Source of the DNA: Desulfatiglandales bacterium
GTDB lineage: Bacteria > Desulfobacterota > DSM-4660 > Desulfatiglandales > Desulfatiglandaceae
Assembly (NCBI GenBank): GCA_963666345.1
Contig: OY762721.1
Coordinates: forward strand, 2,432,001-2,496,000
DNA: 64,000 bases
Direction: 5' to 3'
Below the pieces are notes generated by a model. It was not told the DNA's origin. It saw only the letters and a list, made by a program, of their open reading frames with translations, and searched no databases. Made by a program: the position numbers and the translations under genes. Shown in pieces: positions 5,439-46,775 of the stretch (positions are counted from its first letter, which is position 1; every line of letters starts with the position of its first letter).

Positions 5439-6158
5439 ATGGCGGAGGAAATGAAAGTCGGCTGCGCGCGACCAACCGGCGGCCCGGTCGGAGAGATTGC
5501 CGAGGAGGAATCCAAAGAGAAAACAGTTACAAAAAAGGAGGTTTCACCAATGATCCAGGTAGGGAAAAAGGCCCCTGATTTCGCGGCTCCGGGATATCAA
5601 AACGGAAAATTTATATCCATAAACCTATCGGAATATCTGGGTAAATGGGTGGTGCTCTGCTTCTACCCGGGTGATTTTACCTTTGTCTGAGCGACCGAGA
5701 TTTCGGCGGTCGCCGAAAAACACCCCGAGTTTCAGAAACTGGGAGTGGAAGTGCTTTCCATGAGCATAGACAGTGTGTTCGTGCATAAGATGTGGAATGA
5801 CAACGAGCTTTCAAAGATGGTTGAAGGGGGAGTTCCTTTTCCAATGCTTTCTGATGCCGGAGGAAAGGTGGGCAAGGTATTCGGTGTCTATGACGAGGAC
5901 GCGGGAGTGGAGACAAGGGGCAGATTCATCATTGATCCTGACGGGGTCATCCAGGGTTATGAGGTGCTCACGCCTCCTGTGGGAAGAAACGTGAATGAAT
6001 CGCTCAGGCAGTTACAGGCCTTTCAGCTTGTAAGAAACAGCAAGGGCACAGAGGCTACCCCTTCCGGCTGGAAACCGGGGAAAATGACCCTCAAGCCCGG
6101 CCCCGATCTTGTAGGCAAGGTGTGGGAAGTCTGGAAGACGGACATGGCCTTCGACTGA
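5439..6158 (+). CDS. prxU: Selenocysteine-containing peroxiredoxin (AhpC/PrxU type)
   Basis: ORFs 5439-5690 and 5745-6158 are in the same frame, joined by TGA at 5688-5690 exactly at the peroxidatic position ([17 protein letters not shown]). N-terminal GCARPTGG extension; hairpin immediately 3' of the TGA. Confidence 0.9.
5691..5713 (+). promoter_or_regulatory. Candidate bacterial SECIS hairpin
   Basis: GCGACCG-AGATTTCGG-CGGTCGC: perfect 7-bp stem starting directly after the in-frame TGA. Confidence 0.7.
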
Positions 6159-6678: not shown

Positions 6679-7191
6679 ATGACAGATGTCGTGCCGGTGG
6701 AAAGAATTACGGACAAAATATATCTATTCAGGGGTAAAAAGGTTTTGATGGACAGAGATTTGGCTGCGCTTTATGGAGTGGAAACGGCTCAGTTGAAAAG
6801 AGCTGTAAGGAGGAATATTGAGCGATTTCCTGTTGATTTTATGTTCGAATTGACAAAACAGGAGTTTGAGAATTGGAGATGCCACTTTGGCACCTCCAAT
6901 AGTGAAAAGATGGGGTTGAGATACAGCCCTATGGTTTTTACAGAGCAGGGTGTCGCAATGTTATCGAGCGTCTTGAGAAGCAAACGTGCAATTGAGGTAA
7001 ACATCGCCATCATGCGTGCTTTTGTAAAACTCCGGGAAATGTCGGCAACACATAAAGAATTAGCGCGTAAATTTTATGACTTGGAGCAACACCTCAAAGA
7101 CCATGATGAGCAGATACAGACTATTTTTGAGGCAATTCAACAGTTGTTTGCACCTCCAGAGCAACCCCGGAAAAAATTGGGTTTGAAGTGA
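6679..7191 (+). CDS. ORF6N domain-containing protein
   Basis: IYLFRGKKVLMDRDLAALYGVET...RRNIERFPVDFMFEL...FTEQGVAMLSSVL signature; AGGAG RBS. Confidence 0.9.
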   Translation: MTDVVPVERITDKIYLFRGKKVLMDRDLAALYGVETAQLKRAVRRNIERFPVDFMFELTKQEFENWRCHFGTSNSEKMGLRYSPMVFTEQGVAMLSSVLRSKRAIEVNIAIMRAFVKLREMSATHKELARKFYDLEQHLKDHDEQIQTIFEAIQQLFAPPEQPRKKLGLK

Positions 7192-7393
7192 AGGATAAAA
7201 AAGGCTGCTATGGTAAACGAAGCAGAAAGAAACAACCATGAATCAGTATTTTTTTTGAATTTTTTTAAAATCTCTTTTCCGTGTGACCGTAGCTGTCAAA
7301 ACCATGAGCTAAGATGTAATAAATGTTTGATTTTCTCACTAAAAAGAAATGCCCCATTCCACGGGCTCAATCCGAACGATATTAGCGTTGGGG

Positions 7394-7497
7394 GGAGCTA
7401 CATTTTGGTCGTTCCCATAAAAAAGCGGTTTAAAAGTCCCGTTGTGATTGACACCCCCCCACCACGCCTCCCCCACAGGATGCGCACCCCGGCGGGT
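7394..7497. repeat. 104-bp dispersed element, copy 1 (most diverged)
   Basis: Ungapped match to 10120-10223, 11112-11215 and 12730-12833; core TGATTGACA...CCACAGGATGCGCA...GGCGGGT. Confidence 0.85.
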
Positions 7498-7595
7498 ATT
7501 TTATGTGGAGCCACTCTGCGACCGCTTTTGCCTGCTTCACACATACCGCCTAAAAAAACTATAAAGTACTGATATGGCCAAAATAAACAAATTAT

Positions 7596-7624
7596 TTGAC
7601 AATAATAGAACCAATAAGTACTAT
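7596..7624 (+). promoter_or_regulatory. Sigma70-type promoter, probably giving a leaderless mRNA of the XRE gene
   Basis: TTGACA (7596-7601), 17 bp, TACTAT (7619-7624); ATG at 7632 with no Shine-Dalgarno sequence. Confidence 0.7.
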
Positions 7625-7631
7625 CAAAGAC

Positions 7632-8768
7632 ATGAAACCATCCCTTGATTTCATAGGAAAAAACATACGGTTTCTGCGGCGTCAGAGCAGTTGGACCCTT
7701 GCGCAATTAGCCAAAAGGGTCGGAATGAACGAAGGACCCTTAGGAAGGATAGAGCGGGGGGTCAACGCGCCCTCGGCATCGGTGATATATCGTCTGGCAA
7801 AGGTGTTCGGGGTTTCCGTGAACGCCCTTTTTGCAGAGGCTGAACAGGATCTTCACAATGTTCGTTTCGAGGGAGCGCACGACCCTTTCCTGGTGAGCAT
7901 CGGAAAGGAGGATGCGGTCCTTCCTGCCGGAATTCAGAGGATGACTGGAGATATCATCGCGGGTTTTCAGGCCTTAGAGGATATCTGCAACGCCCGGAAA
8001 CGTGCCGGAATACCCCTTCTTATTCCCTTTGATCCGACCGAGGAGGGCATTTGCGCCCTTTCGGAAACCGTACGGCGCATCATGGAAATCAAGCACGGCA
8101 TAGTGTTCGATTACTTCGAACTATTTGAAAACCAGGGATTCAGGGTGGTTGTCCTTCCTCTGCCTAAAGACATAGACGGCTTTTCCTATTATGACCCCCC
8201 CAATCAGAACGCCTTTTTCTTCCTGAACACCCGCAAGAATCCCGAACGGCAGCTTTTTCACCTTGCGTATGAACTGGGCAGGTTATTCATTTTTACATAT
8301 ACGATGCAGCAGGGAACCGAATTGTTTGACACCCGGGACGAGCAAGGACCCTACGGCCAAAAACCATTTACCGCGCGGCATGGGGCAAACCGTTTTGCGG
8401 CAAATTTTCTCATGCCCCGAAAGACCGTGTTCGATACGGTGAACCAGTTGGGCATTCAAAAAAAACGCTGGTCCTATGAATTGCTGCTCCGGATAAAACA
8501 TCGCTTCGGCGTTTCCGCCGAGACCTTTCTATACCGCTTGAAAGAACTTGAGTTGATTGATCCCGCCTCAGTTGAACCCCTGAAAGAGAAGATCTACGAT
8601 CATTACGATAAAACAACATTCGGCGAACCCGACTTGTCCAGGCGGCTTTTGACCCCCAACGGCAGGTTGTGGGACCTGGTCCTGACTGGAAAAGAAGTGG
8701 CCGAGGGGCGTGATGAAGTCCTGGAAATTGAACAGAGGCTAACAAAGTGGAAGGTGGTAAAAAAATAA
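7632..8768 (+). CDS. XRE-family HTH regulator fused to an ImmA/IrrE (peptidase M78)-like domain with a degenerate zinc motif
   Basis: N-terminal IGKNIRFLRRQSSWTLAQLAKRVGM...IERG HTH; C-terminal ERQLFHLAYELGR and ANRFAANFLMP. Confidence 0.85.
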   Translation: MKPSLDFIGKNIRFLRRQSSWTLAQLAKRVGMNEGPLGRIERGVNAPSASVIYRLAKVFGVSVNALFAEAEQDLHNVRFEGAHDPFLVSIGKEDAVLPAGIQRMTGDIIAGFQALEDICNARKRAGIPLLIPFDPTEEGICALSETVRRIMEIKHGIVFDYFELFENQGFRVVVLPLPKDIDGFSYYDPPNQNAFFFLNTRKNPERQLFHLAYELGRLFIFTYTMQQGTELFDTRDEQGPYGQKPFTARHGANRFAANFLMPRKTVFDTVNQLGIQKKRWSYELLLRIKHRFGVSAETFLYRLKELELIDPASVEPLKEKIYDHYDKTTFGEPDLSRRLLTPNGRLWDLVLTGKEVAEGRDEVLEIEQRLTKWKVVKK

Positions 8769-8788
8769 AGCTGCTTGACACATTAAGT

Positions 8789-8821
8789 ATTGTCAATTAT
8801 TGATTAACAATAATTGACAAT
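8789..8821. promoter_or_regulatory. Perfect inverted repeat, operator-like, upstream of the ATPase gene
   Basis: ATTGTCAATTATTG-ATTAA-CAATAATTGACAAT (14-bp arms), just downstream of TTGACA at 8775-8780. Confidence 0.7.
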
Positions 8822-8838
8822 CAACAAAATGGAGTTGT

Positions 8839-9960
8839 ATGGCTAATCCATTCACATTGCGGGTTATTCCGCCTTTTTATCCTTTTTGCAACCGTACCAT
8901 TGAGCTCCGGCAGCTATGTTCTCATGCGGACAATAAAGCAAATGTTGTGTTATTTTCGCCCAGACGCTACGGAAAAACTTCGCTCGTAAGAAAACTTCAG
9001 TCCGACCTGTCCGAAAAGGGCTTTTTTACGGTTTATGTCGACTTTTTCATGGCAACATCCGAAAGTGAAATCGCCCGGCGTATTTCCCAAAGCATATATT
9101 CTGTTCTGCATGCGCGTGAATCACTTTTGGGCAAAGGCGTTCGTTTTCTAAAGACATTTAAAACCTTCCGTCCCGTGTTTAAGCCATCCCCTGAAAGCGG
9201 TTTTTCATTTTCTGTTGAGCCTGTCTCATCGGCTATATCCGGTATCGACCTCATTGACAATGTGATGGAAGACCTCGGTCAGTTTATTCGCGCTGAATCG
9301 ATAAATGCCCATATTGTCTTTGATGAATTCCAGGAAATCAGTGAATTGAAAAACTCACCCATAGAAGGGATTTTTCGAAGACACATCCAGGAACAACGGG
9401 CATCCTATTTTTTTGTAGGCAGCCGCAGGAGAATTCTTCTCGATATGTTCAACAGAAAAAGCCGGCCGTTTTATCAAAGTGCAATAATGTATCCCTTAAG
9501 ACCTTTACCTGCCAAGGAACTCGTTTTATTTCTGGTTGATAGATTCAAGGAGGGCGGAAAAAGTTGTCCCATCCGGGTCGCTGAAAAAATTTCGGAAAAG
9601 GTGTCCCAATATCCTTACTATGCGCAAGCCCTGGCATATAATGTATTCGAAATTGTCCAAGACATTGTCACGGAAGATGATATTCAGACCGGTTTTAACA
9701 ACATGCTGGCCTCTGAAAGATACGGCTACGAGGCTATGGTTCAGGGACTTACCGGACCCCAGATCGCTCTTTTAAAGGCCCTTGCCGTTGATCCTGTTTC
9801 AAAGATCCTGTCCGCAGAATATATGAATCGCCACAGGCTGTCTGCCGGCGGGATTCAATACGCCCGCAATAAATTGGAAAGTCTGGACTTAATAGAGAGA
9901 CACGACAATATCTGGAAAATAGTCGATCCGGTCTTCGCCTGCTGGCTGGCCGGGTATTGA
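8839..9960 (+). CDS. P-loop ATP-binding protein (archaeal ATPase/ATPase_2-like) with probable C-terminal wHTH
   Basis: NPF...FCNR..EL start, Walker A SPRRYGKTS, Walker B IVFDEFQEI, C-terminal DPVFACWL. Confidence 0.85.
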   Translation: MANPFTLRVIPPFYPFCNRTIELRQLCSHADNKANVVLFSPRRYGKTSLVRKLQSDLSEKGFFTVYVDFFMATSESEIARRISQSIYSVLHARESLLGKGVRFLKTFKTFRPVFKPSPESGFSFSVEPVSSAISGIDLIDNVMEDLGQFIRAESINAHIVFDEFQEISELKNSPIEGIFRRHIQEQRASYFFVGSRRRILLDMFNRKSRPFYQSAIMYPLRPLPAKELVLFLVDRFKEGGKSCPIRVAEKISEKVSQYPYYAQALAYNVFEIVQDIVTEDDIQTGFNNMLASERYGYEAMVQGLTGPQIALLKALAVDPVSKILSAEYMNRHRLSAGGIQYARNKLESLDLIERHDNIWKIVDPVFACWLAGY

Positions 9961-10119
9961 TCCGGACAGATAATCGAACTTCCTCCTGCAAGGCAGAATG
10001 TTGTTGTTTCTGTTGAAAAAAAGCAACCGGAAACCAGCCTGCCAACAATTGAAGAGATCGAAGAGGAACAAAAAAACAGTCCTTAATAAGCGCTTAAGCC
10101 GAACGATATTGCCGTTAAA

Positions 10120-10223
10120 GGAGTAACGTTTTGGTAGCTTCCTTAAAAAACCGGTTTAGATGTCACGTTGTGATTGACAATCCACCCGCCATGCCTCTCC
10201 ACAGGATGCGCAACCCGGCGGGT
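10120..10223. repeat. 104-bp dispersed element, copy 2
   Basis: Core TGATTGACAATCCACCCGCCATGCCTCTCCACAGGATGCGCAACCCGGCGGGT, identical to the copy 3 core. Confidence 0.9.
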
Positions 10224-10324
10224 TTCTGGATATGTTGCTCGCAGAAAAATGGGTGGAAGAGGGACGTGATGAAGTCATGCGGATTGAAGAGAGGCTGAAA
10301 AAGTGGAAGGTGGTCAAAAAATAG
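10214..10324 (+). pseudogene. Relic of the 3' end of the XRE/ImmA-like gene
   Basis: Translates PGGFLDMLLAEKWVEEGRDEVMRIEERLKKWKVVKK*, aligning without gaps to NGRLWDLVLTGKEVAEGRDEVLEIEQRLTKWKVVKK* (8658-8768). Confidence 0.85.
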
Positions 10325-10393
10325 TGAACCTCTGAAATTTCAACACTTCTTCCCGCTGGCGCAAGACAAGCCGGTTTTTGAAAGGGAAAAAAC

Positions 10394-10960
10394 ATGAAAG
10401 ACGCTAAAATAATTGTTCCTGTTGAGAGCGTTGAAAGAACTATTCTGATGATACGAGGCCAAAAGGTGATGATCGACGCTGATCTCGCAAAGCTCTATGG
10501 TGTAACCACCAAGCGACTTAATGAGCAAATCAGGCGTAACAGGGATCGCTTTCCAAATGATTTCATGTTCCAGCTTACTGCTCGTGAAAAAAAAGAGGTG
10601 GTCGCAAATTGCGACCACCTTTCTCAGTTAAAGTTTTCCACTGTGTTTCCTTATGCATTTACGGAACACGGGGCAATTATGGCAGCCAGTGTGCTCAATA
10701 CACGGCGTGCAATAGAGGCCAGCCTCTTTGTTGTCCGTGCATTCGTCAAACTCCGTGAGATGCTGTCAACTCATAAAGAATTGGCTCAAAAGCTTGCGGA
10801 CTTGGAGAGACGCCTTGAAGCTCATGATGATCAGTTCAAGGTTGTCTTTGATGCAATACGCGCACTTATGGTTGAAACCGAAAAACCCAAAAGGAAAATT
10901 GGGTTTGAAGCCAAGGAACCAAAAGGCCGCTATGCCAGAGGAACCAAGAAAAAACATTAA
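10394..10960 (+). CDS. ORF6N domain-containing protein (paralog of 6679-7191)
   Basis: ILMIRGQKVMIDADLAKLYGVTT...RNRDRFPNDFMFQL...PYAFTEHGAIMAASVL. Confidence 0.9.
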   Translation: MKDAKIIVPVESVERTILMIRGQKVMIDADLAKLYGVTTKRLNEQIRRNRDRFPNDFMFQLTAREKKEVVANCDHLSQLKFSTVFPYAFTEHGAIMAASVLNTRRAIEASLFVVRAFVKLREMLSTHKELAQKLADLERRLEAHDDQFKVVFDAIRALMVETEKPKRKIGFEAKEPKGRYARGTKKKH

Positions 10961-11111
10961 TGAATCCGTATTTTAAAACTTGTAGAAATTCCTTTTGTCT
11001 TTGACCGTATCTGTCAAAACCGTGAGTTAAGATGTGACCAATGTTGTGATTTTCTCATCAAAAAGTAACTGCCGTTAATAATGTCTTAAGCCGGACCATA
11101 CTCTCATTGAA

Positions 11112-11215
11112 GGAGTAACGTTTTGGCAACCTCGATAAAAAGCCAATTTAGAAGTCACGTTGTGATTGACAATCCACCCGCCATGCCTCTCCACAGGATG
11201 CGCAACCCGGCGGGT
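11112..11215. repeat. 104-bp dispersed element, copy 3
   Basis: Ungapped match to the other copies; similarity to the copy 1 flank extends upstream to about 10960 (vs about 7240). Confidence 0.9.
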
Positions 11216-11316
11216 TTCTGGATATGTTGCTCGCAGGAAAATGGGTGGAAGAGGGACGTGATGAAGTCCTGCGGATTGAAGAGAGTTTTAAAAAGTGGAA
11301 GGTGGTCAAAAAATAA
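11206..11316 (+). pseudogene. Second relic of the 3' end of the XRE/ImmA-like gene
   Basis: PGGFLDMLLAGKWVEEGRDEVLRIEESFKKWKVVKK*; nearly identical to 10214-10324. Confidence 0.85.
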
Positions 11317-11327
11317 ACGCTGAAGCG

Positions 11328-11383
11328 TAATATTGTATTGCATTACGATTAATAATAAGATAAGTAGTAATGTAATACTATTA
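11328..11383. promoter_or_regulatory. Imperfect AT-rich inverted repeat upstream of the second ATPase
   Basis: TAATATTGTATTGCATTAC ... GTAATGTAATACTATTA. Confidence 0.5.
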
Positions 11384-11438
11384 AATTGGCCTTACTGTTG
11401 TATAGCGTTCCTGTCAACACGGTTATGGAGATTGCAAA

Positions 11439-12674
11439 ATGTTAGATGATATTTTCAGGCTCAGTAGAAACTTTCTGAAAACTTTCAACAAGCCCTACAC
11501 ACGATATTTTCTTCAAAAATATCCGCTTACAAGCAGGTTTTCCATTATCACCGGCCAGCGAGGCGTCGGCAAAACCACGGCAATGATTCAAAAAACATTA
11601 TCAGCGAATGATGATGATATTTTTGCAAAAAAGGCATTATACGTTCCCGTTGACCATTTCATTGTGGCTGGCAGAAGCCTTTATGAAATTGCTGAAGATT
11701 TTTATAATCTTGGCGGTAAAATGATATGTTTTGATGAGATTCATAAATATGACGGCTGGTCAAGTGAGCTGAAGAGTATTTATGACAGCCTGCGGAACCT
11801 GACTATACTCGCTTCAGGCAGCTCTGCCTTGGAGATTCAGAAGGGCAGCCATGATTTGAGCAGAAGAGCTGTAGTCCATCCAATGACAGGACTCTCTTTC
11901 AGAGAATACATCGATTTGGCCGAAGGCATTAAAACTGAATCACTCGTCCTAAAAAGCATATTAGAAGAGCACGAAAAGCTTTCATACGACATTATTGCGG
12001 CCATAGAAGGCAAAAAGAAAAAAATTTTAGCGCTTTTCAAGGATTATCTTCAGTTCGGATATTTTCCCTATTTTACGGAATTTGACGATATTTCATTATA
12101 TCACATAACGTTGGAACAAAGTATCCGTACGACAATAGAAAGTGATTTTTTATCCATATACCCGACATTAAATGGCAGCAGTATAAAAAAAATTAAAAGA
12201 CTCCTTGCTGTTATTTCAGAATCCGCTCCATTTATACCTGATTTGAAACGCCTCAAAAGAATTGTTGAAATTGGAGATGAACGCACTCTTAAAAATTATC
12301 TCAAGTATCTTGAAGACGGAGGGCTAATTTTATCTCTCACAAAAAGTGGAAGTGGGCTTGGCGTCCTGGAAAAACCGGATAAAATATATCTTAATAACCC
12401 GAATCAGATATATGCAATGAGCAGAGAGGGCAAAGAAAATATAGGAACCATACGCGAAACATTTTTTATAAACATGCTTTCAGTTATGCATAAAGTCTCA
12501 ATGCCCAAAAAGGGAGATTTTTATGTTGATAATAAATATACTTTTGAGATAGGGGGCAAAAATAAAAGCTTTAAGCAGATAAAGGACACTAACAATTCTT
12601 TTCTTGCAATTGACGACGTAGAAGCAGGAATCAGCAACAAAATCCCATTATGGTTGTTTGGCTTTTTGTATTAA
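11439..12674 (+). CDS. AAA-family ATPase (AAA_14-like)
   Basis: Walker A GQRGVGKTT, Walker B FDEIHKY, SGSS motif, DLSRR, GLSFREY, C-terminal FEIGGKNK...KIPLWLFGFLY. Confidence 0.88.
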   Translation: MLDDIFRLSRNFLKTFNKPYTRYFLQKYPLTSRFSIITGQRGVGKTTAMIQKTLSANDDDIFAKKALYVPVDHFIVAGRSLYEIAEDFYNLGGKMICFDEIHKYDGWSSELKSIYDSLRNLTILASGSSALEIQKGSHDLSRRAVVHPMTGLSFREYIDLAEGIKTESLVLKSILEEHEKLSYDIIAAIEGKKKKILALFKDYLQFGYFPYFTEFDDISLYHITLEQSIRTTIESDFLSIYPTLNGSSIKKIKRLLAVISESAPFIPDLKRLKRIVEIGDERTLKNYLKYLEDGGLILSLTKSGSGLGVLEKPDKIYLNNPNQIYAMSREGKENIGTIRETFFINMLSVMHKVSMPKKGDFYVDNKYTFEIGGKNKSFKQIKDTNNSFLAIDDVEAGISNKIPLWLFGFLY

Positions 12675-12729
12675 GACAACGGGAAAAGAAGAGGAAGAGG
12701 GGCGTCGGCCCGACGATCTTAGCACCGGG

Positions 12730-12833
12730 GGAGTTTTGTTTTGGTAGTTGCCATTAAAAACCGGTTTAGAAGTCAAATGGTGATTGACAATCAACCCGCC
12801 ACGCCTCTCCACAGGATGCGCACCTCGGCGGGT
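12730..12833. repeat. 104-bp dispersed element, copy 4 (upstream of cas3)
   Basis: Ungapped match to the other copies; contains the perfect palindrome TGATTG-A-CAATCA and an ACCCGCC/GGCGGGT stem followed by a T run. Confidence 0.9.
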
Positions 12834-12874
12834 TTTTGTTTTTGGATATAGGACACTACCTGACCCACATGGCA

Positions 12875-12883
12875 TGTTATAAT
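12875..12883 (+). promoter_or_regulatory. Extended -10 promoter candidate for the cas operon
   Basis: TG-T-TATAAT ending 78 bp upstream of the cas3 ATG. Confidence 0.55.
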
Positions 12884-12960
12884 AGCCCGGAATCAGATTC
12901 CCGCAATTATTCTCTTCAATTTGGCTGCTGACTGAAAGTCTGATTTTAACAGGATAATAG

Positions 12961-15771
12961 ATGAGCGATTTCTTTCCAGATTATTTCAAATATTGGGGCA
13001 AGGCTGACAAGGATGATCCAACCAAGTATCACCTTTTACCCTATCATTGCTTGGATGTGGCGGCGGTAGGTAAAATCCTATTAGAAAAAAAACCTTTTCT
13101 TTTAAAGCAGCTATCTCGATTAAGCTGCATTGAAGAAACAGTTTTGAAAAATATTTTAGTATTTTTCCTGGCATTGCATGATCTGGGTAAATTTTCTGAA
13201 AGCTTTCAGTATGTCAGGCCTGATTTGTTAAAAAAGCTACAAGGCAAAGTAAAAAGTCATAAACAGACTTACTCACGAAAGGATTTTGGTCATGATTCCA
13301 TTGGATTCTTATTGTGGAAAGAACGCGCCTTTAAGCAAGTTATAGGGCAGATAGTTCAACAATATGGTCAGGTTGGGGACGAAAATGATTGGTGGGATCT
13401 GCTTAAATGGTTCATGGAAGCCTCTAACGGGCATCATGGTTTACCCGTTAAACAGGACAATAGAGTATTGGTTGATTATTTTGATGACCTCGATCAGCGT
13501 GCTGCGTCTGAATTTACTAAAGATATAATCGAGTTGTTCTCTTTGGAAGATGTTTTAAGGATAGATTTAGATCAGAATTATGAACGATTATATAGACAGC
13601 TCTCCGTGGCATCATGGTCGTTCACAGGTTTTTATGTTCTCTGTGACTGGATTGGATCTGACGAAAAAATTTTCAAATCCCAGTCAAAGGAACAACCACT
13701 AAAGCAGTACTGGAAAAAAACTGCATTAAAAAGGGCTCAAGAGGCAATAGGTAAAGCAGGTATTTTGCCATGCAAAGCAAACTATGAACTTGATCCATTA
13801 GCAGAGTTGCTTGATTTGCCAGAAAATGCACAACTAACCCCTTTGCAGGCCTTGGTTCACGATATTCAATTGGTTGACAACCCCCAACTCTTCATTATTG
13901 AAGATGAAACCGGGGCGGGAAAAACAGAGGCGAGTTTAATTCTATTGAATCGTTTGATGGCTAAGGGGTTGGCAAATGGTTTCTATTTAGCCTTGCCAAC
14001 CATGGCAACTGCTGATGGTATTTATCCCAGAGTCCAAAAGACCTATGATAGCCTTTACCTTCCACATGAAAAACCTTCTTTAATTTTGTCCCATAGTTCA
14101 GCCAAACTCAGCGATAAGTTCACTGAAACCATTATATGTTCAGCTCGTGCTGTTTCAGAACAGACATATAGCGATGATGCCATGTCGCGTTGTCAGGAAT
14201 GGTTGGTCGATAACCGTAAAAAATCCCTGTTGGCACATGTCGGGGTCGGCACGATTGATCAAGCTTTCTTGGCAGTGCTAAAAGTAAAATATCAATCCTT
14301 ACGTTTAATCGGCTTGGTCGGCAAGGTCTTGGTTATTGATGAAGCTCATGCCTACGACGCATACATGGGAAAAGAACTGGAAGTTCTCCTTCAAGTTCAT
14401 GCCGCCTTAGGTGGAAGCGCCATTGTTATGTCGGCGACACTTCCATTTTTGATACGACAGAAACTAACTGATGCTTTCCTTAAGGGGATAGGTTCAGAAG
14501 CTCTTGAATTAGATAAAAAAGATTTATATCCACTTTTGACTCATATTGCAGATGGTTACAAGAAAGAGTTGGCTTTTGCCTGTAAACAGGGAAATAACAA
14601 AAAAGATGTTCGGATAAAATTCATACATTCTGATCAAGAGGTTGACCAGCTTATCATGCAGAATCTCGAGATGGGCCTGTGTGTTTGCTGGATAAGAAAT
14701 TCAGTCAAAGATGCGAGACAAACTTTTAAACGACTTAAGAGTAATGGTTTGAAGGTAGAGCTTTTCCATGCCCGTTTTACTATAGCTGATCGTTTGGATG
14801 TTCAGGGCCGAATATTAAATACTTTCGGCAAAAAGGGTGGTTTTGAGGAAAGAAAAGGCAGGCTGGTAATCGCCACCCAGGTAGTTGAACAGTCCCTTGA
14901 CCTTGATTTTGATGTTATGATTACCGATTTAGCGCCTATTGATTTGATGTTGCAACGGGCGGGGCGAATGCACCGCCATATTCGGGACAAAATAGGCAAT
15001 TTCAAAACAGATGGTGATGATGAACGAGGCGCGGCAACTCTATATATTCATACGCCTGAATATACCGACAGTCCTCAGTCTGAATGGTTTTCAGCCTTTT
15101 TCCCAAATGCAAAAAAGGTCTATGAAAATCATGCCAGGCTATGGTTGGGTTTAAAACAGCTAAGCCAACTCCCAAAACCAAAACCTACGTTGCCGGAAAA
15201 TATTAGAGATTTGATCGAAAACGTGTATGGCAAGGACTCTGAAATTCCTAAAGAGCTTGAAAAATTTGATATAAACGCATACGGCAATCAAAGTAGCCAG
15301 CGCACCATAGGTGAATTTAACACGATTGATTATGAAATTGGCTATACAATGGATGGGCAAAACTGGGAAGAAGATTTGAAAATGCCAACCCGATTGGGAG
15401 AGGAAACACTTATCCTAATCTTGGCAAAATGGAAAAACGGGGAATTGGTACCGTTTACTCCAGGGGAAAAACAAAGATGGCAAAAAAACGAGATAAGAGT
15501 TCTAAAGAAAAATATAGCTGAAATACCTTTATTTAACGAACACCAAGATGAAGTTGACATGATTAAACAGCGTATGCCGAGTAAGGGTAAATGGATTAAC
15601 TTGCTTCCAATGGTATGGGATGCCGAAAAAGCATTTTGGGCGGCAGAGGTCATTGATGCCAAAGGTCATGCCGACAAAGTTTATTATAGTTCGGAACAAG
15701 GCTTGATTTATGGCTATGAGTTCGAGGCTGTAAGAAATGATGATCAATTAGAAAAGGATGAATTGATATGA
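12961..15771 (+). CDS. cas3: CRISPR-associated helicase/nuclease Cas3
   Basis: YWGKA, YHCLDVA and LHDLGK (HD domain); TGAGKTEA, IDEAHAYD, MSATLP, ATQVVEQSLDLD, QRAGRMHRH (helicase motifs). Confidence 0.97.
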   Translation: MSDFFPDYFKYWGKADKDDPTKYHLLPYHCLDVAAVGKILLEKKPFLLKQLSRLSCIEETVLKNILVFFLALHDLGKFSESFQYVRPDLLKKLQGKVKSHKQTYSRKDFGHDSIGFLLWKERAFKQVIGQIVQQYGQVGDENDWWDLLKWFMEASNGHHGLPVKQDNRVLVDYFDDLDQRAASEFTKDIIELFSLEDVLRIDLDQNYERLYRQLSVASWSFTGFYVLCDWIGSDEKIFKSQSKEQPLKQYWKKTALKRAQEAIGKAGILPCKANYELDPLAELLDLPENAQLTPLQALVHDIQLVDNPQLFIIEDETGAGKTEASLILLNRLMAKGLANGFYLALPTMATADGIYPRVQKTYDSLYLPHEKPSLILSHSSAKLSDKFTETIICSARAVSEQTYSDDAMSRCQEWLVDNRKKSLLAHVGVGTIDQAFLAVLKVKYQSLRLIGLVGKVLVIDEAHAYDAYMGKELEVLLQVHAALGGSAIVMSATLPFLIRQKLTDAFLKGIGSEALELDKKDLYPLLTHIADGYKKELAFACKQGNNKKDVRIKFIHSDQEVDQLIMQNLEMGLCVCWIRNSVKDARQTFKRLKSNGLKVELFHARFTIADRLDVQGRILNTFGKKGGFEERKGRLVIATQVVEQSLDLDFDVMITDLAPIDLMLQRAGRMHRHIRDKIGNFKTDGDDERGAATLYIHTPEYTDSPQSEWFSAFFPNAKKVYENHARLWLGLKQLSQLPKPKPTLPENIRDLIENVYGKDSEIPKELEKFDINAYGNQSSQRTIGEFNTIDYEIGYTMDGQNWEEDLKMPTRLGEETLILILAKWKNGELVPFTPGEKQRWQKNEIRVLKKNIAEIPLFNEHQDEVDMIKQRMPSKGKWINLLPMVWDAEKAFWAAEVIDAKGHADKVYYSSEQGLIYGYEFEAVRNDDQLEKDELI

Positions 15772-17543
15772 AACAATTTAATTTGTTGTTCGATCCGTGG
15801 ATACCTGTAAGAACCCGACATGGTGAGAATAAGCCGATTAAAGCATATGAAGTTGTGCAGAACGATATTGTCGCTCTTGATGCGCCGAGGGCCGATTTTA
15901 ATGCGGCTTTGATGCAGTTTTTAATCGGTCTATTGCAAACGGTTTCTGCACCGGAAAATCCCAGAGCCTGGCGCAAGCTATTTAGTCAGCCGCCTTCTGA
16001 AGATGAATTAAAGACAAAATTTAAAGGAATTGAGAAGGCTTTCTATCTGGATGGTGATGGTTATCGGTTTATGCAGGATGCATTAGCAATAAACACCGGT
16101 GAGATACGCCCTATTGAAGAAATGATATTCGGTGCTCCTGGTGAAAGCGGTAAAGGCAAGAATCAAGATTTCTTTGTAAAGCAAAACAATATAGATGGGC
16201 TTTGTTTTTCTTGCGCTGCAGCGGCATTGTTGACTGCTAATGTTTTTGCAGAAGATGGAGGACGGGGTTATTTTCAATCCATGAGGGGCAATGGTTTTGT
16301 TTCATGTCTTGTCCAATTAGACGAACAGCAATCAGATAAATCTCTATGGAAAAATCTCTGGCTGAACATTGTAGAAGATAATATTGAATCTATCATAGAA
16401 CCAGAAAGGAACTTTTATTGGATTAAAGATTTACCAGACAGACCCTATGTGGAGAGATTGGAAAAAACGAAGCTCAGCATAATTGATTTGAAGGCAAAGA
16501 AGAAAGGGAGTAAAAACGGAACATATAAAAATGAGATAGATGAACAAATAAAACAATTAGAAAAAGAATCTGATAGGATAAAAGAAAAGATAGATGGTTT
16601 AGGTAACAACAAAATCGTTTACCCTGAAAGCGGTACCCTTCAAGCCCACTGGGCATGGATGCGACGATTTTTTTTAAATACGAAAAATACCATTAACGGA
16701 GAATGCAGTATGTGCCGTAGCATGGACGAATTGATAACTGATTTTTATAAAACTGGAAAAGGATACAAATACCCTAAAGAAGAGTGGCAAAATAAACATC
16801 CTTTTTCACCAAGCAAAAAATACCAAAGAGACCATTACAACAAAAATAATTTAAAATATAAGGACAAAATGCTTGTCATAGAAATGACTCAAAACGGTTT
16901 GCCTTACACTCATTGGCAAGATTTTGTGATACAAACTGAAAAGCAAACTCCCGCGAAAGTGATCAACAGACATTTAAGAGAAAGGCATCCGGATGAGCAG
17001 CTTATTATTTGGTCATTTGGTTATGCAATGGATAGTAATTCCCCTAAAGGGTGGTACGAGTCAAAAACTCCCTTTTATTTGCTGAAAGATAAAGAGCAGC
17101 GGGAAATTTTTGAAGTTGAGATTGATAGATATATTCAAGGCGCTAATAAAATTGCCGACAACCGGACCGGTTATTTGCTCTATGCAATTAAAAATGCCTG
17201 GTTTGATGAAAGTAAAGACAAAAATAAAGTTCAAAAAAATTATTTCAACAATAACAAAGCCTCCGAAATCGCAAAATGCTTCTGGAACAATACCGAAAGT
17301 AAATTTTATGAACAGATGAAAGCGCTTTATGCCATTGCCAATCAGCTTACCGATGATAAAAAAGTTGAGTTGCGGCAAGACTGGTATGAGTATATTAAGA
17401 ATGAAGCTAATAAACTGTTTGATCGGTGGGCATTTAGAGCTGGTATTCAGATGAACCCAAGACGCATTGCCAAAGCGCATAATCAGTTAACAACAAATCT
17501 AAACAGTAAATCACTGAAACAGAATATATTGGGTTTGCCATAG
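15768..17543 (+). CDS. cas8e: Type I-E Cascade large subunit Cas8e (CasA/Cse1)
   Basis: FNLLFDPWIPV start, RADFNAALMQFLIGLLQT, RFMQD, LCFSCAAAAL, LWKNLWLN; follows cas3. Confidence 0.92.
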   Translation: MKQFNLLFDPWIPVRTRHGENKPIKAYEVVQNDIVALDAPRADFNAALMQFLIGLLQTVSAPENPRAWRKLFSQPPSEDELKTKFKGIEKAFYLDGDGYRFMQDALAINTGEIRPIEEMIFGAPGESGKGKNQDFFVKQNNIDGLCFSCAAAALLTANVFAEDGGRGYFQSMRGNGFVSCLVQLDEQQSDKSLWKNLWLNIVEDNIESIIEPERNFYWIKDLPDRPYVERLEKTKLSIIDLKAKKKGSKNGTYKNEIDEQIKQLEKESDRIKEKIDGLGNNKIVYPESGTLQAHWAWMRRFFLNTKNTINGECSMCRSMDELITDFYKTGKGYKYPKEEWQNKHPFSPSKKYQRDHYNKNNLKYKDKMLVIEMTQNGLPYTHWQDFVIQTEKQTPAKVINRHLRERHPDEQLIIWSFGYAMDSNSPKGWYESKTPFYLLKDKEQREIFEVEIDRYIQGANKIADNRTGYLLYAIKNAWFDESKDKNKVQKNYFNNNKASEIAKCFWNNTESKFYEQMKALYAIANQLTDDKKVELRQDWYEYIKNEANKLFDRWAFRAGIQMNPRRIAKAHNQLTTNLNSKSLKQNILGLP

Positions 17544-17554
17544 GAGGATAAATA

Positions 17555-18121
17555 ATGAGTGAATCAATAGAACCTAAGATTTTTGGAGAAGGTCATCCCG
17601 CCAGCGTTTTTATCTTAGAATGGTGGGAGAGTTTGAAACAGAATAAAGGTGACAGAGCCGAGTTGAGGCGCTGTAAAAATCTTGAAGAGATTCAAAAGGC
17701 TTCGGCCTATCAGCGTTGCTACTGGCAATTAAAAAAACACTTTACCCCGGAACAACAGATTCCGTCCAGAGAACAGATGGCCATTATTATCGGTTTGGCT
17801 GCTCATATTGAGGACAATGATACAAAACATATAGACAAAAATAGTAATAAGGAAGAGAAATACTATTTTGCCTATCAAATGGCCGCACCAAAGGGTAAAG
17901 AAAAAGATGCCCCACCTAAACTTAGCGAATTGCGTTTCCGCCGCTTACTGAAAATCAAAGACCGGGTAAAATTATACCGTTTTCTCATTCAGGTTATTCG
18001 CATGTTGGAAAAAAAAGTCAATCTGCTGGATTTGTTAAGTATTGCCTATTTTTGGGGCGATAAGGCCAAAACGAATCTGGCTTATAAATATTACGAACAA
18101 GCCAATCTGAAAGCTAAATAA
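17555..18121 (+). CDS. cas11: Type I-E Cascade small subunit Cas11 (CasB/Cse2)
   Basis: WWESL..NKGDRAELRRC, LSELRFRRLL, LAYKYY. Confidence 0.92.
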   Translation: MSESIEPKIFGEGHPASVFILEWWESLKQNKGDRAELRRCKNLEEIQKASAYQRCYWQLKKHFTPEQQIPSREQMAIIIGLAAHIEDNDTKHIDKNSNKEEKYYFAYQMAAPKGKEKDAPPKLSELRFRRLLKIKDRVKLYRFLIQVIRMLEKKVNLLDLLSIAYFWGDKAKTNLAYKYYEQANLKAK

Positions 18122-18132
18122 AGGAGGATACT

Positions 18133-19200
18133 ATGAATGACAATCGTTTTATTCAATTGCACTTACTTGTTTCTTACCCGCCATCTAACCCAAATCGAGA
18201 TGAACTTGGTCAACCCAAAACAGCTATTATGGGCGGAACACAGCGTTCCAGGATTTCTTCGCAAAGTTTGAAAAGAGCCTGGCGTACTTCGGAGATATGG
18301 AAAACTGAAGGCTTGGCTATTGGCACAAGAACAAGAGAGCTGTTTTTATCCAAAGATTATGGCTTATACAATAACTTGTTGGAAAAGCATGGCGAAAAAA
18401 AAGCCGAAGAATATGCAAAAGCAATATTGAATGTCTTTGCTAAAACGGCAAAAGTGAAACAGAAACCTGAAGCTCCGGTCGACGAAAAATTTGTTGGCAA
18501 AGAAATCGTCACCGAGCAGCCTATACACTTTTCTGATACTGAAATCAAAAAAATAAAATCACTTGTCGATAATCTCGACAAAGAAGTAAGTAAAGAGGAA
18601 TTGGAAAGCCTACTTGATGAGAGCCCAAGAGACATTGATCTTGCCATGTTCGGTAGAATGATCGCCAAACGCCCGGACAAAAATAGAGAAGCGGCGGTTC
18701 AAGTTGGACATGCCATTTCCATAAACGAAGTTGAAATCGAGGATGACTTTTTTACCGCTGTTGATGATTTAAATAAACATGGTTCAGCCCACATGGGCGA
18801 ACAGGAGTTTGTTTCAGCAATATATTATGTTTATCTCTGCATAGATACAAAATTGCTATTAAATAATCTAAGTAACGATATAGACCTTGCAAAAAAATCT
18901 CTTGAAGCCTTGGTAAATACTGCTGCTGTGGTTGCCCCTACAGGTAAGCAGAACAGCTATGCTCACCGAGCTCAAGCCTTTTATATTTTGGCGGAAAAGG
19001 GTGACGCGCAACCAAGAAATCTGTCCATAGCTTTCCTTAAAGCTATGCCGGCAGATGATCCGGTAAGGGCGATCGAGCAATTGAATGCTATCAAAGACAA
19101 GTTCAACACCGCTTACACGAAACCGAAAAGTGAAAAAGAAATGAATTTGTTTGGCGAGGGGACTCTAAAAGATATTCTTGATTTTGTTGGAGAAATCTAA
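18133..19200 (+). CDS. cas7: Type I-E Cas7 (CasC/Cse4)
   Basis: FIQLHLLVSYPPSNPNRDELGQPKTAIMGG..RSRISSQSLKRAWR, DLAMFGRM, DDFFTAVDDL, PTGKQNSYA. Confidence 0.96.
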   Translation: MNDNRFIQLHLLVSYPPSNPNRDELGQPKTAIMGGTQRSRISSQSLKRAWRTSEIWKTEGLAIGTRTRELFLSKDYGLYNNLLEKHGEKKAEEYAKAILNVFAKTAKVKQKPEAPVDEKFVGKEIVTEQPIHFSDTEIKKIKSLVDNLDKEVSKEELESLLDESPRDIDLAMFGRMIAKRPDKNREAAVQVGHAISINEVEIEDDFFTAVDDLNKHGSAHMGEQEFVSAIYYVYLCIDTKLLLNNLSNDIDLAKKSLEALVNTAAVVAPTGKQNSYAHRAQAFYILAEKGDAQPRNLSIAFLKAMPADDPVRAIEQLNAIKDKFNTAYTKPKSEKEMNLFGEGTLKDILDFVGEI

Positions 19201-19970
19201 TGAATGACTACCTAATATTCAGATTATATGGTGCTTTGGCATCTTGGGGGGATATAGCGGTGGGCGATATTCGTGCAAGTTACCGCTATCCGTCTAAATC
19301 GGCGGTCATTGGTTTGCTGGCTGCTGCCCTGGGTGTTGAACGGGATGCACATGACAAACAATCTGAGCTGGCCAAACTGATGCTGTCCGTCAGAATAGAT
19401 GCGATGGGCAGTCCAATTGAGGATTATCATACTGTGCAGACACCAAGTGAACAAGCGATTAAGTATGACCGAGCCAAGGAGTGCTGGACGCGTCTTGATG
19501 AAATTGAAGCGATTAAATGGCGTGTGATTCAGTCTCAAAGCAATGCCGAGGCTGGAGCCATCCAATCCAGACGGGCTTATTATTGTGATTCAGTTTACTC
19601 GGTTGCGCTATGCGAAAATATAAAAGATAAGATTTATTGGCAAACCCTTGAAATTTCTAAGCTGCAAGATATTGTTGCTTTTCTGAAAGAACCCCGATTT
19701 GTTTTGTACTTAGGAAGAAAATCATGTCCCTTAGGATTGCCGTTAGAACCACAGGTAATACCAGCAAAGAATTGCAGAGTTGCCTTCCAACAGGCAAAGT
19801 TCGGATTTCCCGGCGAATTGCAAATCATGCTCAAGGAGGCAACGAGCATTCAGTATTACACACAAGAAGATATTGAAAATAGCCAAATGAAACTTGCGCG
19901 GCGAGACCAGCCAGTCAACCGCACAACTTGGCAGTTTACCGAAAGGGATGAATACTATTTCAGCGAATGA
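19200..19970 (+). CDS. cas5: Type I-E Cas5 (CasD)
   Basis: YLIFRLYGALASWG, PSKSAVIGLLAAALG, DYHTVQ, LYLGRKSCP. Confidence 0.95.
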   Translation: MNDYLIFRLYGALASWGDIAVGDIRASYRYPSKSAVIGLLAAALGVERDAHDKQSELAKLMLSVRIDAMGSPIEDYHTVQTPSEQAIKYDRAKECWTRLDEIEAIKWRVIQSQSNAEAGAIQSRRAYYCDSVYSVALCENIKDKIYWQTLEISKLQDIVAFLKEPRFVLYLGRKSCPLGLPLEPQVIPAKNCRVAFQQAKFGFPGELQIMLKEATSIQYYTQEDIENSQMKLARRDQPVNRTTWQFTERDEYYFSE

Positions 19971-19979
19971 GGAAGGGTC

Positions 19980-20654
19980 ATGTATTTACACAAAATTACT
20001 ATCGACAGCGAAGCGTTAAGAAGAGACCGAAAAATATATCAAGATGTTTATTTGTTGCATAAAAAAATATGGGAGCTTGTCAGCCGGAATGAAAACCAGA
20101 AAAGAAATTTTTTATACCGGGTTGAATATGATGCTTATCAGAATATCAAACATATTTATCTACTTGCGCCAAATCAGATTTCATTTCAAAAAAATATAAA
20201 GATTGCGGTTTCACCAAGATACCAGCCTCAGATTGAAACGGGCGAATTCCTTTTTTTTAAGCTTAGAGCAAACCCTATTATCAAAAGAAAAGAAAACGGG
20301 AAAGCTAAGGAATACAGCCTTGTTATGGATGCCAAACATCAATTCAAGAAAAATGGAAAAAACTATCAGGAACGGTTTTATCTGGACGAGCTAATTTATG
20401 ATGTTGGTATGAAATGGCTTATCAGGAAAGGTGAGCAGCACGGATTTTCAGTCAAACAATTCGAAGTCAAAATCGATAATGACCGTGAATATCATGTCAC
20501 ACCCACGGGGAAAGGAAGCTTTATGATCAGAACACTGGATTTTGAGGGTGCCCTTACCGTTGTTGATCCAAGACTCTTTGTTGATGTGCTTTATAAAGGC
20601 GTTGGCTCTGCTAAAGCCTTCGGCTGCGGGCTGATGCTGGTGAGGCGAATATGA
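19980..20654 (+). CDS. cas6e: Type I-E Cas6e (CasE/Cse3)
   Basis: YLLHKKIWEL, FKLRANP, C-terminal G-loop GVGSAKAFGCGLMLV. Confidence 0.95.
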   Translation: MYLHKITIDSEALRRDRKIYQDVYLLHKKIWELVSRNENQKRNFLYRVEYDAYQNIKHIYLLAPNQISFQKNIKIAVSPRYQPQIETGEFLFFKLRANPIIKRKENGKAKEYSLVMDAKHQFKKNGKNYQERFYLDELIYDVGMKWLIRKGEQHGFSVKQFEVKIDNDREYHVTPTGKGSFMIRTLDFEGALTVVDPRLFVDVLYKGVGSAKAFGCGLMLVRRI

Positions 20655-20682
20655 GGCCGGAAAACTGATAGGGAGAATTAGA

Positions 20683-21513
20683 ATGGAGACAGGGATAGCG
20701 GTTTTCAGAGGTAAGGAGATCAGGAAGACAATTCATAACGATAAGTGGTGGTTTTCCGTAGCTGATGTTGTAGAGATCTTGACCGATACTGTAAACAGTT
20801 CTGACTATATTAAAAAAATGCGTAAGCGTGACAGCGAGTTATCTAAAGGGTGGGGACAAATTGTCACCCCCCTTTTGTTGGAAACAACTGGTGGCAAGCA
20901 GAAAGTCAATTGCGCCAACACAGAGGGCATTTTCCGCATAATTCAGTCCATCCCATCCCCCAAGGCTGAGCCTTTCAAGCGGTGGCTGGCAAAGGTCGGT
21001 TATGAACGGGTGCAGGAGATAGGGGATCCCGAGCTGGCAACCAAAAGAACCCGTACTCTGTACAAGGCGAAAGGCTATTCGGACGACTGGATTGAGAAGC
21101 GGATGCGCGGCATCGCCATCAGGGAGGAGCTTACGGACGAGTGGAGAGAGAGGGAGGTAAGGCGCGAGAAGGAATATGCGATACTAACCGCCGAGATCGC
21201 AAAAGCGGCATTTGGTGTTACTCCCGCCGAACACAAAAAACTGAAAGGGCTGATTCGGGAAAACCTGAGGGACCACATGACAGACCTTGAATTGATCTTT
21301 TCCATGCTTGGAGAGGCGGCTACGACTGAGATAACGCGGGCTGATGATGCAAAGGGTTTTCAGGAAAGCAAGAGTGCTGCTCGCAAGGGAGGAGATGTTG
21401 CCGGCAAGGCGAGAGAAGATCTGGAGAAGAAGACCCGCAAGAAGGTTGTCTCTCCCGAGAATTATCTGGACATTCCTCAGAAAAGACGGAAGCAGTTGAA
21501 TGAAAAGGAGTAG
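20683..21513 (+). CDS. BRO-N domain (antirepressor-like) protein
   Basis: FRGKEIRK....KWWFSVADVVEILTD, RIIQSIPSPKAEPFKRWLAKVGYER, ENLRDHMTDLELIF. Confidence 0.88.
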   Translation: METGIAVFRGKEIRKTIHNDKWWFSVADVVEILTDTVNSSDYIKKMRKRDSELSKGWGQIVTPLLLETTGGKQKVNCANTEGIFRIIQSIPSPKAEPFKRWLAKVGYERVQEIGDPELATKRTRTLYKAKGYSDDWIEKRMRGIAIREELTDEWREREVRREKEYAILTAEIAKAAFGVTPAEHKKLKGLIRENLRDHMTDLELIFSMLGEAATTEITRADDAKGFQESKSAARKGGDVAGKAREDLEKKTRKKVVSPENYLDIPQKRRKQLNEKE

Positions 21514-21519
21514 GACCCC

Positions 21520-22116
21520 ATGGTGGTCTATCCGGATGATAAACAAAGCGCAGGACCCCCACAACTCATTCCGCCACATGGCGGTTATCGCGATCTTCAA
21601 TCTTATCAGATGTCCGAGATTGTCTATGACGGCACGGTAGTGTTTTGCGACCGGTTTATTTCAAAGCGGTCGCGTACCCATGATCAGATGGTTCAGGCGG
21701 CGCGGAGCGGAAAGCAGAATATAGCGGAGGGCTGCATGGCTTCAGGCACGTCCAAAAAGACGGAGCTCAAGCTCGTTGGTGTTGCGAGGGCGAGCCTTGA
21801 GGAACTGCTGTTGGATTTTCAGGATTTTTTGCGACAGAAGGGATTGGCCCTTTGGGGAAAGGATCACCCAAAAGCCAGAAAAGTGCGCGGACTTTGCTAC
21901 AAGAAAGATAGGTCTTATAAGACTTATAGGCCCTATATTGAGGAAAGTTCTCCTGAAGTTGCTGCCAATACCATGGTCTGCCTGATCCACCAGACCAATT
22001 ACCTGCTTGATCAACAACTGCGGGTTTTAGAAAAGGACTTTTTAAAGGAGGGTGGTTTAACGGAAAGGATGTACCGCGCCCGTTCACGGGCCCGCGATTG
22101 GAACAGGAATAAATGA
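21520..22116 (+). CDS. Four helix bundle suffix domain-containing protein
   Basis: [69 protein letters not shown]. Confidence 0.88.
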
Positions 22117-22217
22117 CCTATACAGAAGACGATCTTCTTCCCCTTTCGGGCTTACAGCATCTTCTTTTTTGCGAGCGGCAGTGCGCGTTGATAAATATTG
22201 AGTAGTTGTGACTGGAA
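22113..22217 (+). pseudogene. cas4: Cas4 N-terminal relic (type I-C-like)
   Basis: [33 protein letters not shown]; the ATG overlaps the upstream stop, and two nonsense codons sit at the usual Q and W positions. Confidence 0.82.
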
Positions 22218-22279
22218 TTCATGAAAGGTAGAGAAACATTAGAGATTGATAATCAGTCTTGTGAAGGAGAGTTGCCGTT

Positions 22280-23537
<1,258 letters not shown>

Positions 23538-24967: not shown

Positions 24968-25699
24968 CTATGAAGCTGCGTGTTTCATTCTCCAGCTTTC
25001 GTTACCTGTTTCTATAATTTCACAATGATGAGTCAATCGATCAAGCATGGCCGTAGTCATCTTTTTATCTCCAAAGACTTGGGGCCATTCACCGAAGGTC
25101 AAGTTGGTGGTAATCACTATGGATGTCTGTTCGTAGAGTTTTGATATAAGATGAAAGAGCAGTTGACTGCCGTTTTTGGAAAAAGGCAGATAACCCAGTT
25201 CATCGAGGACCACAAGATCAAATCGAAGTAGTCTTGCTGTGATTTTGCCGGCCAATCCAATCATTTTTTCCTGCTCAAGCTCATTTGCCAGATCCACCAG
25301 GTTATAAAACTTGCACTTCCTGCCATTCCTTATGGCCTGGGCCGCTATAGTTATGGCTAAATGGGTTTTGCCCGTACCGGTGCCACCTACAAAAATCAGG
25401 TTGATATGTTCGGCTATAAAATCACCCTGATAAATAGACCTAATCTGGGCTTCATCAACACAGGCCCCGTTAAAATCAAAGCCATCGATATCTTTAAGGA
25501 CAGGAAACCTGGCCTGTCCCATACGATATCGGATACTCCTTATATATCTTTCGGCAGCTTCAGCCTTGAGCAGTTCCAGGATTACCTTTTCAGGAGTTGA
25601 ATGGGTCTTGCGTCCATTGGAGACAACTTCATCATAAATGGACTGCATACCCCGCAACTTTAGTTTTTCCATATGGTCCATGATATCATTGCGCAGCAT
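24968..25699 (-). CDS. istB: IS21-like element helper ATPase IstB
   Basis: [51 protein letters not shown]. Confidence 0.96.
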
Positions 25700-46587: not shown

Positions 46588-46720
46588 TTGATCCGGCTAT
46601 ACGCCAGGGTTTTCTGATGATGCTTTTATTAGAATTATGCCTTATTTTTAAAGGTCTTTCTACCTTGGAGGCGGCACAGCGGTTGTGGGAAAAACGGATG
46701 GTCAAACTTTTCTGCAAATG

Positions 46721-46751
46721 AAAAGGCAGTGCCGATTGCAGCACCGCCTTT
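46721..46751 (-). terminator. Intrinsic terminator of ELWxxDGT gene (second copy at about 48528-48559)
   Basis: Minus strand AAAGGCGGTGC-TGCAATCG-GCACTGCCTTTT. Confidence 0.65.
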
Positions 46752-46775
46752 GTCTCTATATGTCTTAATCGCTGT

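Follow-up and report, generated by a model that had tools for sequence, protein, structure and literature searches.

The stretch of DNA analysed here, called the window, covers 64,000 nucleotides from the genome of a Desulfatiglandales bacterium (assembly GCA_963666345.1, contig OY762721.1, positions 2,432,001 to 2,496,000). The genome is a single contig of 4.16 Mb that is 96.7% complete, and the genome-wide searches reported below cover all of that contig. Between positions 6679 and 12960 of the window, an array of genes leads up to a type I-E cas operon, and four copies of a 104-bp element are interspersed among them. Each copy likely consists of two small-RNA remnants lying back to back: an abiF RNA on the + strand and, on the − strand, an RNA that elsewhere accompanies genes for NYN-domain nucleases.

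All six genes of the array lie on the + strand, in the order ORF6N, XRE plus Peptidase_M78, ATPase_2, ORF6N, AAA_14 and cas3, and domain assignments for each of them bear out the order and cargo labels given in a preliminary description of this DNA. The two ORF6N-domain genes (6679..7191, PF10543 E = 1e-33, PADLOC PDC-S05; 10394..10960, PF10543 E = 2.9e-30) are 46% identical by blastp, and between them lie the XRE/ImmA-IrrE gene (7632..8768), which has its own promoter-like site (TTGACA-17-TACTAT at 7596-7624), and ATPase-1 (ATPase_2; 8839..9960). ATPase-2 (AAA_14; 11439..12674; PADLOC PDC-S01) has a G+C content of 37%, and no significant similarity was found between the two ATPases. Long imperfect inverted repeats 5′ of each ATPase gene (8775-8825 and 11325-11385) are possible autoregulatory operators. 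As classified by PADLOC, the cargo is of defence type (PDC-S05, PDC-S01 and RmrA-like). The array also holds gene remnants. A gene-tail fragment on the + strand at 10017..10069, possibly from a YhcG/DUF1016 gene, recurs after ORF6N in two relatives (G026 and G015). Behind element copies 2 and 3, as first described, lie two copies of the XRE 3′ tail (10216..10325 and 11208..11317, + strand, ~96% identical), each comprising the last 35 codons of an XRE gene, fused to the preceding stem via a short shared sequence. The array ends at cas3 (12961..15771), the first gene of an operon that runs to cas2 (12961-23537). A possible cas3 promoter, an extended −10-like site (TGn-TATAAT, 12875..12883, + strand), was read from the sequence by eye 3′ of the last stem; a promoter/terminator scan made no call there.

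The four copies of the element are ungapped, start at 7394, 10120, 11112 and 12730 as originally reported, and agree pairwise at 75-95 of 104 positions. BLASTN, nhmmer, the Rfam model RF03085 and a purpose-built covariance model find only these four in the genome, all within 5.5 kb. The preliminary description had set its proposal against a genome-wide repetitive extragenic palindromic sequence or miniature inverted-repeat transposable element, and with four clustered copies that reading is rejected. Its 104-bp limits hold in part, since the ungapped core is real but homology between copies runs ~50 bases further 5′. The copies are mosaics, with homology limits that differ for every pair of copies and relatives; copies 2 and 3 have in common a 140-base stem-plus-XRE-tail block that is ~96% identical and has the same deletion junction. 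Exact-pattern scans found one locus in genome contigs, four in metagenomes (two of which are one contig, near-identical to the window) and none in viral contigs, and no RNA data set was listed as a carrier among sequencing runs.

The 3′ half of the element is a known RNA. All four stems match RF03085, the abiF RNA family, although only copy 4 (41.8 bits) passes the Rfam gathering score of 37 bits, with copies 2 and 3 at 35.7 bits each and copy 1 at 27.1 bits below it. The preliminary description, which recognised no named RNA family, was therefore mistaken about this half; its suggestion of a structured RNA was right in kind, but the stem is not a new one. On the + strand, the matches comprise an orphan −35 box at 7448-7453 with a degenerate stem at 7458-7497 (copy 1, 7448..7497), and box plus stem at 10174..10223 (copy 2, stem 10185-10223), 11166..11215 (copy 3, stem 11177-11215) and 12784..12838 (copy 4, stem 12795-12833). 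A clean U-tract is present in copy 4 only, having been lost in copies 2 and 3, and the stem of copy 1 has broken pairs. The promoter/terminator scan missed the abiF stems, and its calls were no more frequent than in shuffled sequence. In the RCd22-AbiF system of Clostridioides difficile phi027, the motif is reported to be the leader RNA of an Abi_2 toxin, which terminates most transcription early and neutralises AbiF in cis and in trans (10.1101/2025.04.15.648962). PbAbiF-AbiFr is another AbiF type III toxin-antitoxin system, covered in two reviews (PMC12737573, PMC13064643).

The GATTG-A-CAATC palindrome that had been singled out in the element, with an operator as one possible reading, is the −35 box of the abiF RNA and thus a promoter stump. 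It is not kept in four relatives (G006, G110, G128 and G086), and the operator reading is accordingly rejected. In G006, where the abiF gene is retained, TTGACA is followed by 17 bases, a −10 hexamer, AACAACA and then the stem. Hexamer and stem are 36 bases apart in G006, G128, G086 and, in the close strain L021, copy 4, but 4-5 bases apart in the four window copies, G026 and G135. The window copies have thus all lost ~31 bases (spacer, −10 and start) that are kept by L021 and relatives; contigs of two public sequencing runs, X3 and X5, carry this long form at copy 4.

No toxin gene was detected either. With PF07751, a relative's protein and a six-sequence hidden Markov model as queries, no Abi_2 gene was found in the locus or the genome; the six-sequence model does detect abiF fragments in G119 and G144. 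An AbiF type III toxin-antitoxin module has an Abi_2 gene directly 3′ of the RNA, as G006 does, and a promoter for the RNA; the window copies have neither. Across 209 genomes of the order, Abi_2 matches occur in eight (six whole frames and two fragments). An abiF-type stem can be seen by eye just 5′ of all six whole frames, and three of these stems are called by cmscan at E<=1. AbiF is also reportedly the proposed ancestor of Cas13. The window copies resemble known abiF RNA/AbiF systems in belonging to the same family of 37-39-base stems, in the U-tract after the stem and, judging by intact relatives, in standing behind a sigma-70-type promoter. They differ in that no abiF gene follows them or was found in the genome and the promoter is deleted, in that single motifs are spread between cargo genes rather than arranged in tandem in one RNA, and in their link to a type I cas3. 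Contig 24 of run X6, from a related organism, has an abiF stem and, directly behind it, an abiF-like start that closely resembles the one in G006. In other Desulfobacterota (L091, L095, L097, L099, L012 and L014), abiF often lies in or beside restriction-modification-like genes, as read by eye from starts of open reading frames.

The 5′ half carries a second RNA, on the − strand. Covariance-model matches, together with fold and promoter scores, place decayed copies with hairpin and terminator at 7339..7426, 10066..10152 and 11058..11144 (copies 1 to 3), and a truncated copy missing the 3′ arm of the terminator at 12676..12762 (copy 4). With this model, trained on 14 homologues, four further loci were detected among 151 genomes of the order, each of them adjoining a NYN (PF01936) gene, in one case a frameshifted one; the training loci G114 and G047 also adjoin a NYN gene, and the NYN homologue of G015 was inspected by eye only. 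Searching from the protein side, the RNA was present at two of the three NYN matches from 301 phylum genomes and at one, on a Thermus plasmid, of three plasmid NYN loci fetched from 134 records. The NYN loci that lack it are distant homologues (32-36% identity). No viral relative of the NYN protein was found.

NYN-linked copies have a layout of TTGACT, 17 bases, a −10 hexamer, a 9-pair hairpin and a terminator, with promoter scores of 9-10 of 12 in all six loci scored. Covariation across 11 sequences supports the fold: 95.9% of cells are paired, with 22 double-sided changes, a result reached by 0 of 500 shuffles and compared with 38-49% in slid controls, in an alignment that includes related, hence non-independent, sequences, two rows cut before the terminator 3′ arm and one row misaligned at that arm. 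A conserved structured RNA with its own promoter and terminator therefore stands beside a nuclease gene, as in a type III-like toxin-antitoxin system. The RNA precedes NYN in three genomes, and in six the two are divergent; placement of both kinds suggests that it would act in trans. A protein-coding tail as the source of this half is rejected on a ratio of nonsynonymous to synonymous polymorphism (pN/pS) of 0.94 in the suspected frame and on the pairing-preserving changes; the other frames give 0.61-1.11, with no clear winner.

In the window, this second RNA has largely decayed. Fold energies are −10 to −19 kcal/mol vs −29 to −33 for NYN-linked copies, and promoter scores are 3-6 except for a different hexamer pair in copy 3. 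Three of the four element copies look decayed overall. No matching NYN gene was found in this genome, and the same query detected none in eight further genomes holding parts of the element (completeness 82-96%). An Rfam search with eight loci of the NYN-associated RNA returned nothing at E<=1, although the same search missed the decayed abiF stem of G086, so that short motifs can be lost by it. A literature search found no description of a bacterial small RNA linked to NYN, the supplement of the RNA-motif survey PMC5737381 being outside its reach; the main text of that survey names neither such an RNA nor an abiF RNA before cas3. The uncatalogued RNA (loci L107, L108, L109, L110, L111, L061, L115, L116 and L118) is a candidate RNA antitoxin or attenuator.

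Relatives have these pieces too, close to type I cas3 genes, with other cargo in the form of RhuM, Fic, Panacea/HTH, DUF4062, HigBA, ORF6N and XRE/ImmA genes. G006 keeps the order promoter, RNA, abiF and cas3 intact, G114 has cas3, RNA and NYN, and in G119 a fragment of abiF lies 4.8 kb ahead of cas3. Eight stems without a toxin were found in other genomes. Four of them lie directly before cas3 or a cas3 fragment, at distances of 170 bases (G110), 46 bases behind a stem with the long promoter (G128) and 167 bases (G135), with the cas3-like start of G086 read by eye. Of the others, that of G015 lies 2.1 kb before cas3, the contig of G026 ends, and those of G148 and G231 precede unrelated genes. 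Among 401 phylum genomes, none of 11 abiF genes has cas3 within 1.5 kb (by eye, from starts of open reading frames), so the link between abiF and cas3 is local to this group. A literature search that did not reach the primary AbiF paper found no description of an abiF RNA before cas3.

A type I-C repeat-spacer-degenerate repeat unit is also present in G006, 5′ of its promoter-abiF RNA-abiF-cas3 series (L050:10400-10800). Its seed matches its own promoter at 10 of 11 positions (mismatch at position 6) behind a TTC protospacer-adjacent motif (PAM), much as in CreR. Like CreTA (10.1101/2024.10.29.618823, PMC12737573), G006 thus combines a toxin module at the front of its type I cas operon with a repeat-spacer-repeat unit. 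The window element, unlike CreR, does not resemble a CRISPR RNA, its seed having only self-matches and no type I-E repeat remnant being present; a guide function is rejected on these grounds and on the lack of any PAM-flanked target in nine loci and copies. The 22 CRISPR spacers had no match to the locus (best 20 of 32).

A further repeated piece, segment A, lies upstream of copies 1 and 3 (7284..7315 and 11002..11033, + strand) and is predicted to be an activator-dependent promoter. Its motif is TGACC-N6-TGTCAA-N10-TAnnnT, and the spacing of TGTCAA-N10-TAnnnT is found in 25 of 28 distinct sites. PafBC-type hybrid promoters have the motif tGTCgg(N10)tA(N3)T (PMC8635444). Segment A has the same ten-base spacing, and this genome has WYL-domain matches at C1:3578908 and C1:3876647 and one full-length WYL-domain frame of 345 amino acids; segment A differs in coming from another phylum and in its longer upstream motif. 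The sites could possibly form a WYL-activated regulon. Segment A occurs in many genomes of the family (L064-L083), often before defence-type genes.

The gain, loss and reordering of modules anticipated in the preliminary description are borne out by L021 and by relatives, among which content and order differ rather than being fixed. L021, which is 97.8% identical, has neither ATPase-1 nor copy 2, and the true end of its XRE gene joins the second ORF6N gene. By informative sites, this crossover maps ~70 bases past the element, within the XRE tail; the first XRE tail of the window is the corresponding zone of ATPase-1 gain or loss. L021 then shows four mismatches over 11400-12773 and switches at ~12774, inside copy 4, to another allele that ends in a different cas3. 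Run contigs X1, X3 and X4 carry a third downstream haplotype after 12846, not present in this genome, and X5 has two other gene orders at ~85% identity. The window's cas3 is uncovered in X3 and X6, which is no proof on its own. Breakpoints were expected in the element, and one switch does fall in copy 4, but the other lies in the XRE tail and junctions are scattered (XRE tail, ~12774, 10172 and other points in relatives). No joint of an excised circle of this strain was found in the run contigs, from which rare variants are dropped.

Taken together, these arrangements are probably best explained as orphan leaders left behind by lost nuclease genes in a variable defence slot before cas3, copied and shuffled by homologous recombination. 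The ancestral slot would have held RNA-guarded nucleases, as in G006 and G114. Deletion of a nuclease first would be harmless, so that its RNA and promoter could stay. The window copies lack ~31 bases of the promoter for the abiF RNA, and their NYN-type RNA has lost most of its pairing. Conserved spacer, XRE tail and segment A would provide homology for recombination, presumably RecA-dependent, with incoming or sister versions of the island, and such exchange could stack or drop single genes and swap the cas operon. Copy 4, with its U-tract, may continue to work as a terminator, shielding cas3 from the upstream cargo. The orphan abiF leaders before unrelated genes in G148 and G231 support a reading as relics. 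Defence hotspots reshuffled by recombination are a general concept, and this locus resembles them in having variable defence-type cargo in a fixed slot; it differs in that remnants within the slot, namely RNA leaders and gene tails, make up the shared homology.

Several observations weigh against this account. In toxin-less copies, stems are on average 89% conserved compared with 73% for the adjacent 70 bases, and higher in 12 of 15 pairs, in loci partly picked by their stem and so subject to selection bias; stems kept better than their flanks are not predicted by pure decay. The copy 4 stem shares 97% identity with that of G006, which is linked to a toxin, half of the toxin-less stems elsewhere stand directly before cas3 or a fragment of it, and one of the two mapped strain switches lies inside the element. 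L021 and runs X3-X5 may share source data and so perhaps are not independent, and the change at ATPase-1 could be a loss in L021 or a gain here.

The better conservation of stems than of flanks leaves room for a rather unlikely but still appreciable alternative, in which the orphan abiF RNA was retained for a function, either as a leader or attenuator of the cas operon, cas3 having replaced abiF behind the same promoter, or as an antitoxin acting in trans against AbiF from mobile elements. Both roles would suit an RNA that, in C. difficile, terminates in cis and neutralises in trans. In this genome, transcription of copies 1 and 3 would start from the segment A promoters. Even where no toxin is present, stems are better conserved than their flanks; those of G128, G110, G026 and window copy 4 pass the Rfam gathering score, and G128 has its cas3 close behind a stem with the long promoter. 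Set against this are the missing −10 and start regions of all four window copies, the lost U-tracts of copies 2 and 3 and the broken pairs of copy 1. The orphan stems of G135 and G086 are decaying too (0.86 and 0.83 vs G006), orphan stems also precede unrelated genes, and cas3 here has an extended −10-like site of its own.

That a fixed block was duplicated in tandem once, long ago, and has since decayed with no continuing exchange is very improbable. The block common to copies 2 and 3, with its identical deletion junction, does point to one local duplication or conversion, and the explanation survives for that block only; as a full account it is refuted by the strain variants. The ORF6N paralogues are only 46% identical, the ATPases are unrelated, the copies are mosaics with different homology limits, and content and order differ among strains and relatives.

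Equally little credence can be given to a site-specific platform at which an attC-like site, or one used in trans by a different recombinase, gathers single-gene cassettes in front of cas3; an integron-like platform was one of two options in the preliminary description. Integron cassette arrays and clusters of attC sites lacking integron integrases are defined by R″/R′ cores and a long bottom-strand hairpin. The locus is like them in having one gene per repeat, all co-oriented, in its order varying between strains, with one switch in copy 4, and in an intact intI elsewhere in the genome. The window holds no tyrosine integrase, as had been stated, but the genome does encode an integron integrase in an open frame (TIGR02249, 472 bits; C1:1359039-1359980), ~1.08 Mb away and not adjacent. 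No RYYYAAC or GTTRRRY core is present on either strand of the four copies, and no attC-like long stable bottom-strand hairpin was found among the six of eight strands folded, whose DNA fold is no better than that of shuffles (z +0.7 to −1.4). A simple attC heuristic found no site near that intI either and so lacks a positive control. Both halves of the element are explained as RNA genes with promoters, junctions are scattered rather than at one fixed point, and the units carry broken gene tails and genes with their own promoters, unlike precise cassettes; attC identity is rejected.

Other features of the window lie outside the array. The interval that separates cas6 from cas1 holds a Bro-N gene (PADLOC PDC-S13) and a 23S_rRNA_IVP-like gene (20683-22116), and the type I-E CRISPR array is split by an inserted IS21 element (istA/istB, 24968-27203). 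Two 141-base tandem-repeat blocks lie within a duplicated stretch of ~1.8 kb at 46685-50306. Upstream of the array, an AhpC/peroxiredoxin frame (5550-6158) has a single in-frame stop, the TGA at 5688-5690, in a TP-GDFT-FV context. This codon sits where the catalytic residue is expected and presumably might encode selenocysteine.

The 3′ stem was already known. What a literature search that reached neither the supplement of PMC5737381 nor the primary AbiF paper did not find described is a fourfold, promoter-less orphan abiF leader before cas3 and the partner RNA of NYN type. It is conceivable, although on balance doubtful, that the 5′ half derives from an undescribed family of RNA-guarded nucleases, in which a hairpin-terminator RNA of ~75 bases restrains a NYN/LabA ribonuclease in trans, with a range that extends from Desulfobacterota to a plasmid of Thermus. 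Together with AbiF, this family would make up a group of nuclease guards, each with an RNA antitoxin, stationed at the front of type I cas operons; the leaders left over from them would provide a platform for shuffling without a recombinase and act as decoys against addiction.

Since both RNAs are mostly decayed in this window, the weight of the finding is limited here. In one relative, AbiF is the first gene of a type I cas operon, and its RNA leader has been left before cas3 in several genera. Leaders of this kind can supply the homology through which strains exchange defence genes, and even entire cas operons, with no need for a recombinase. The most promising lead is the covarying RNA that accompanies NYN nuclease genes, which is uncatalogued and is a candidate for a new RNA-protein toxin-antitoxin family.

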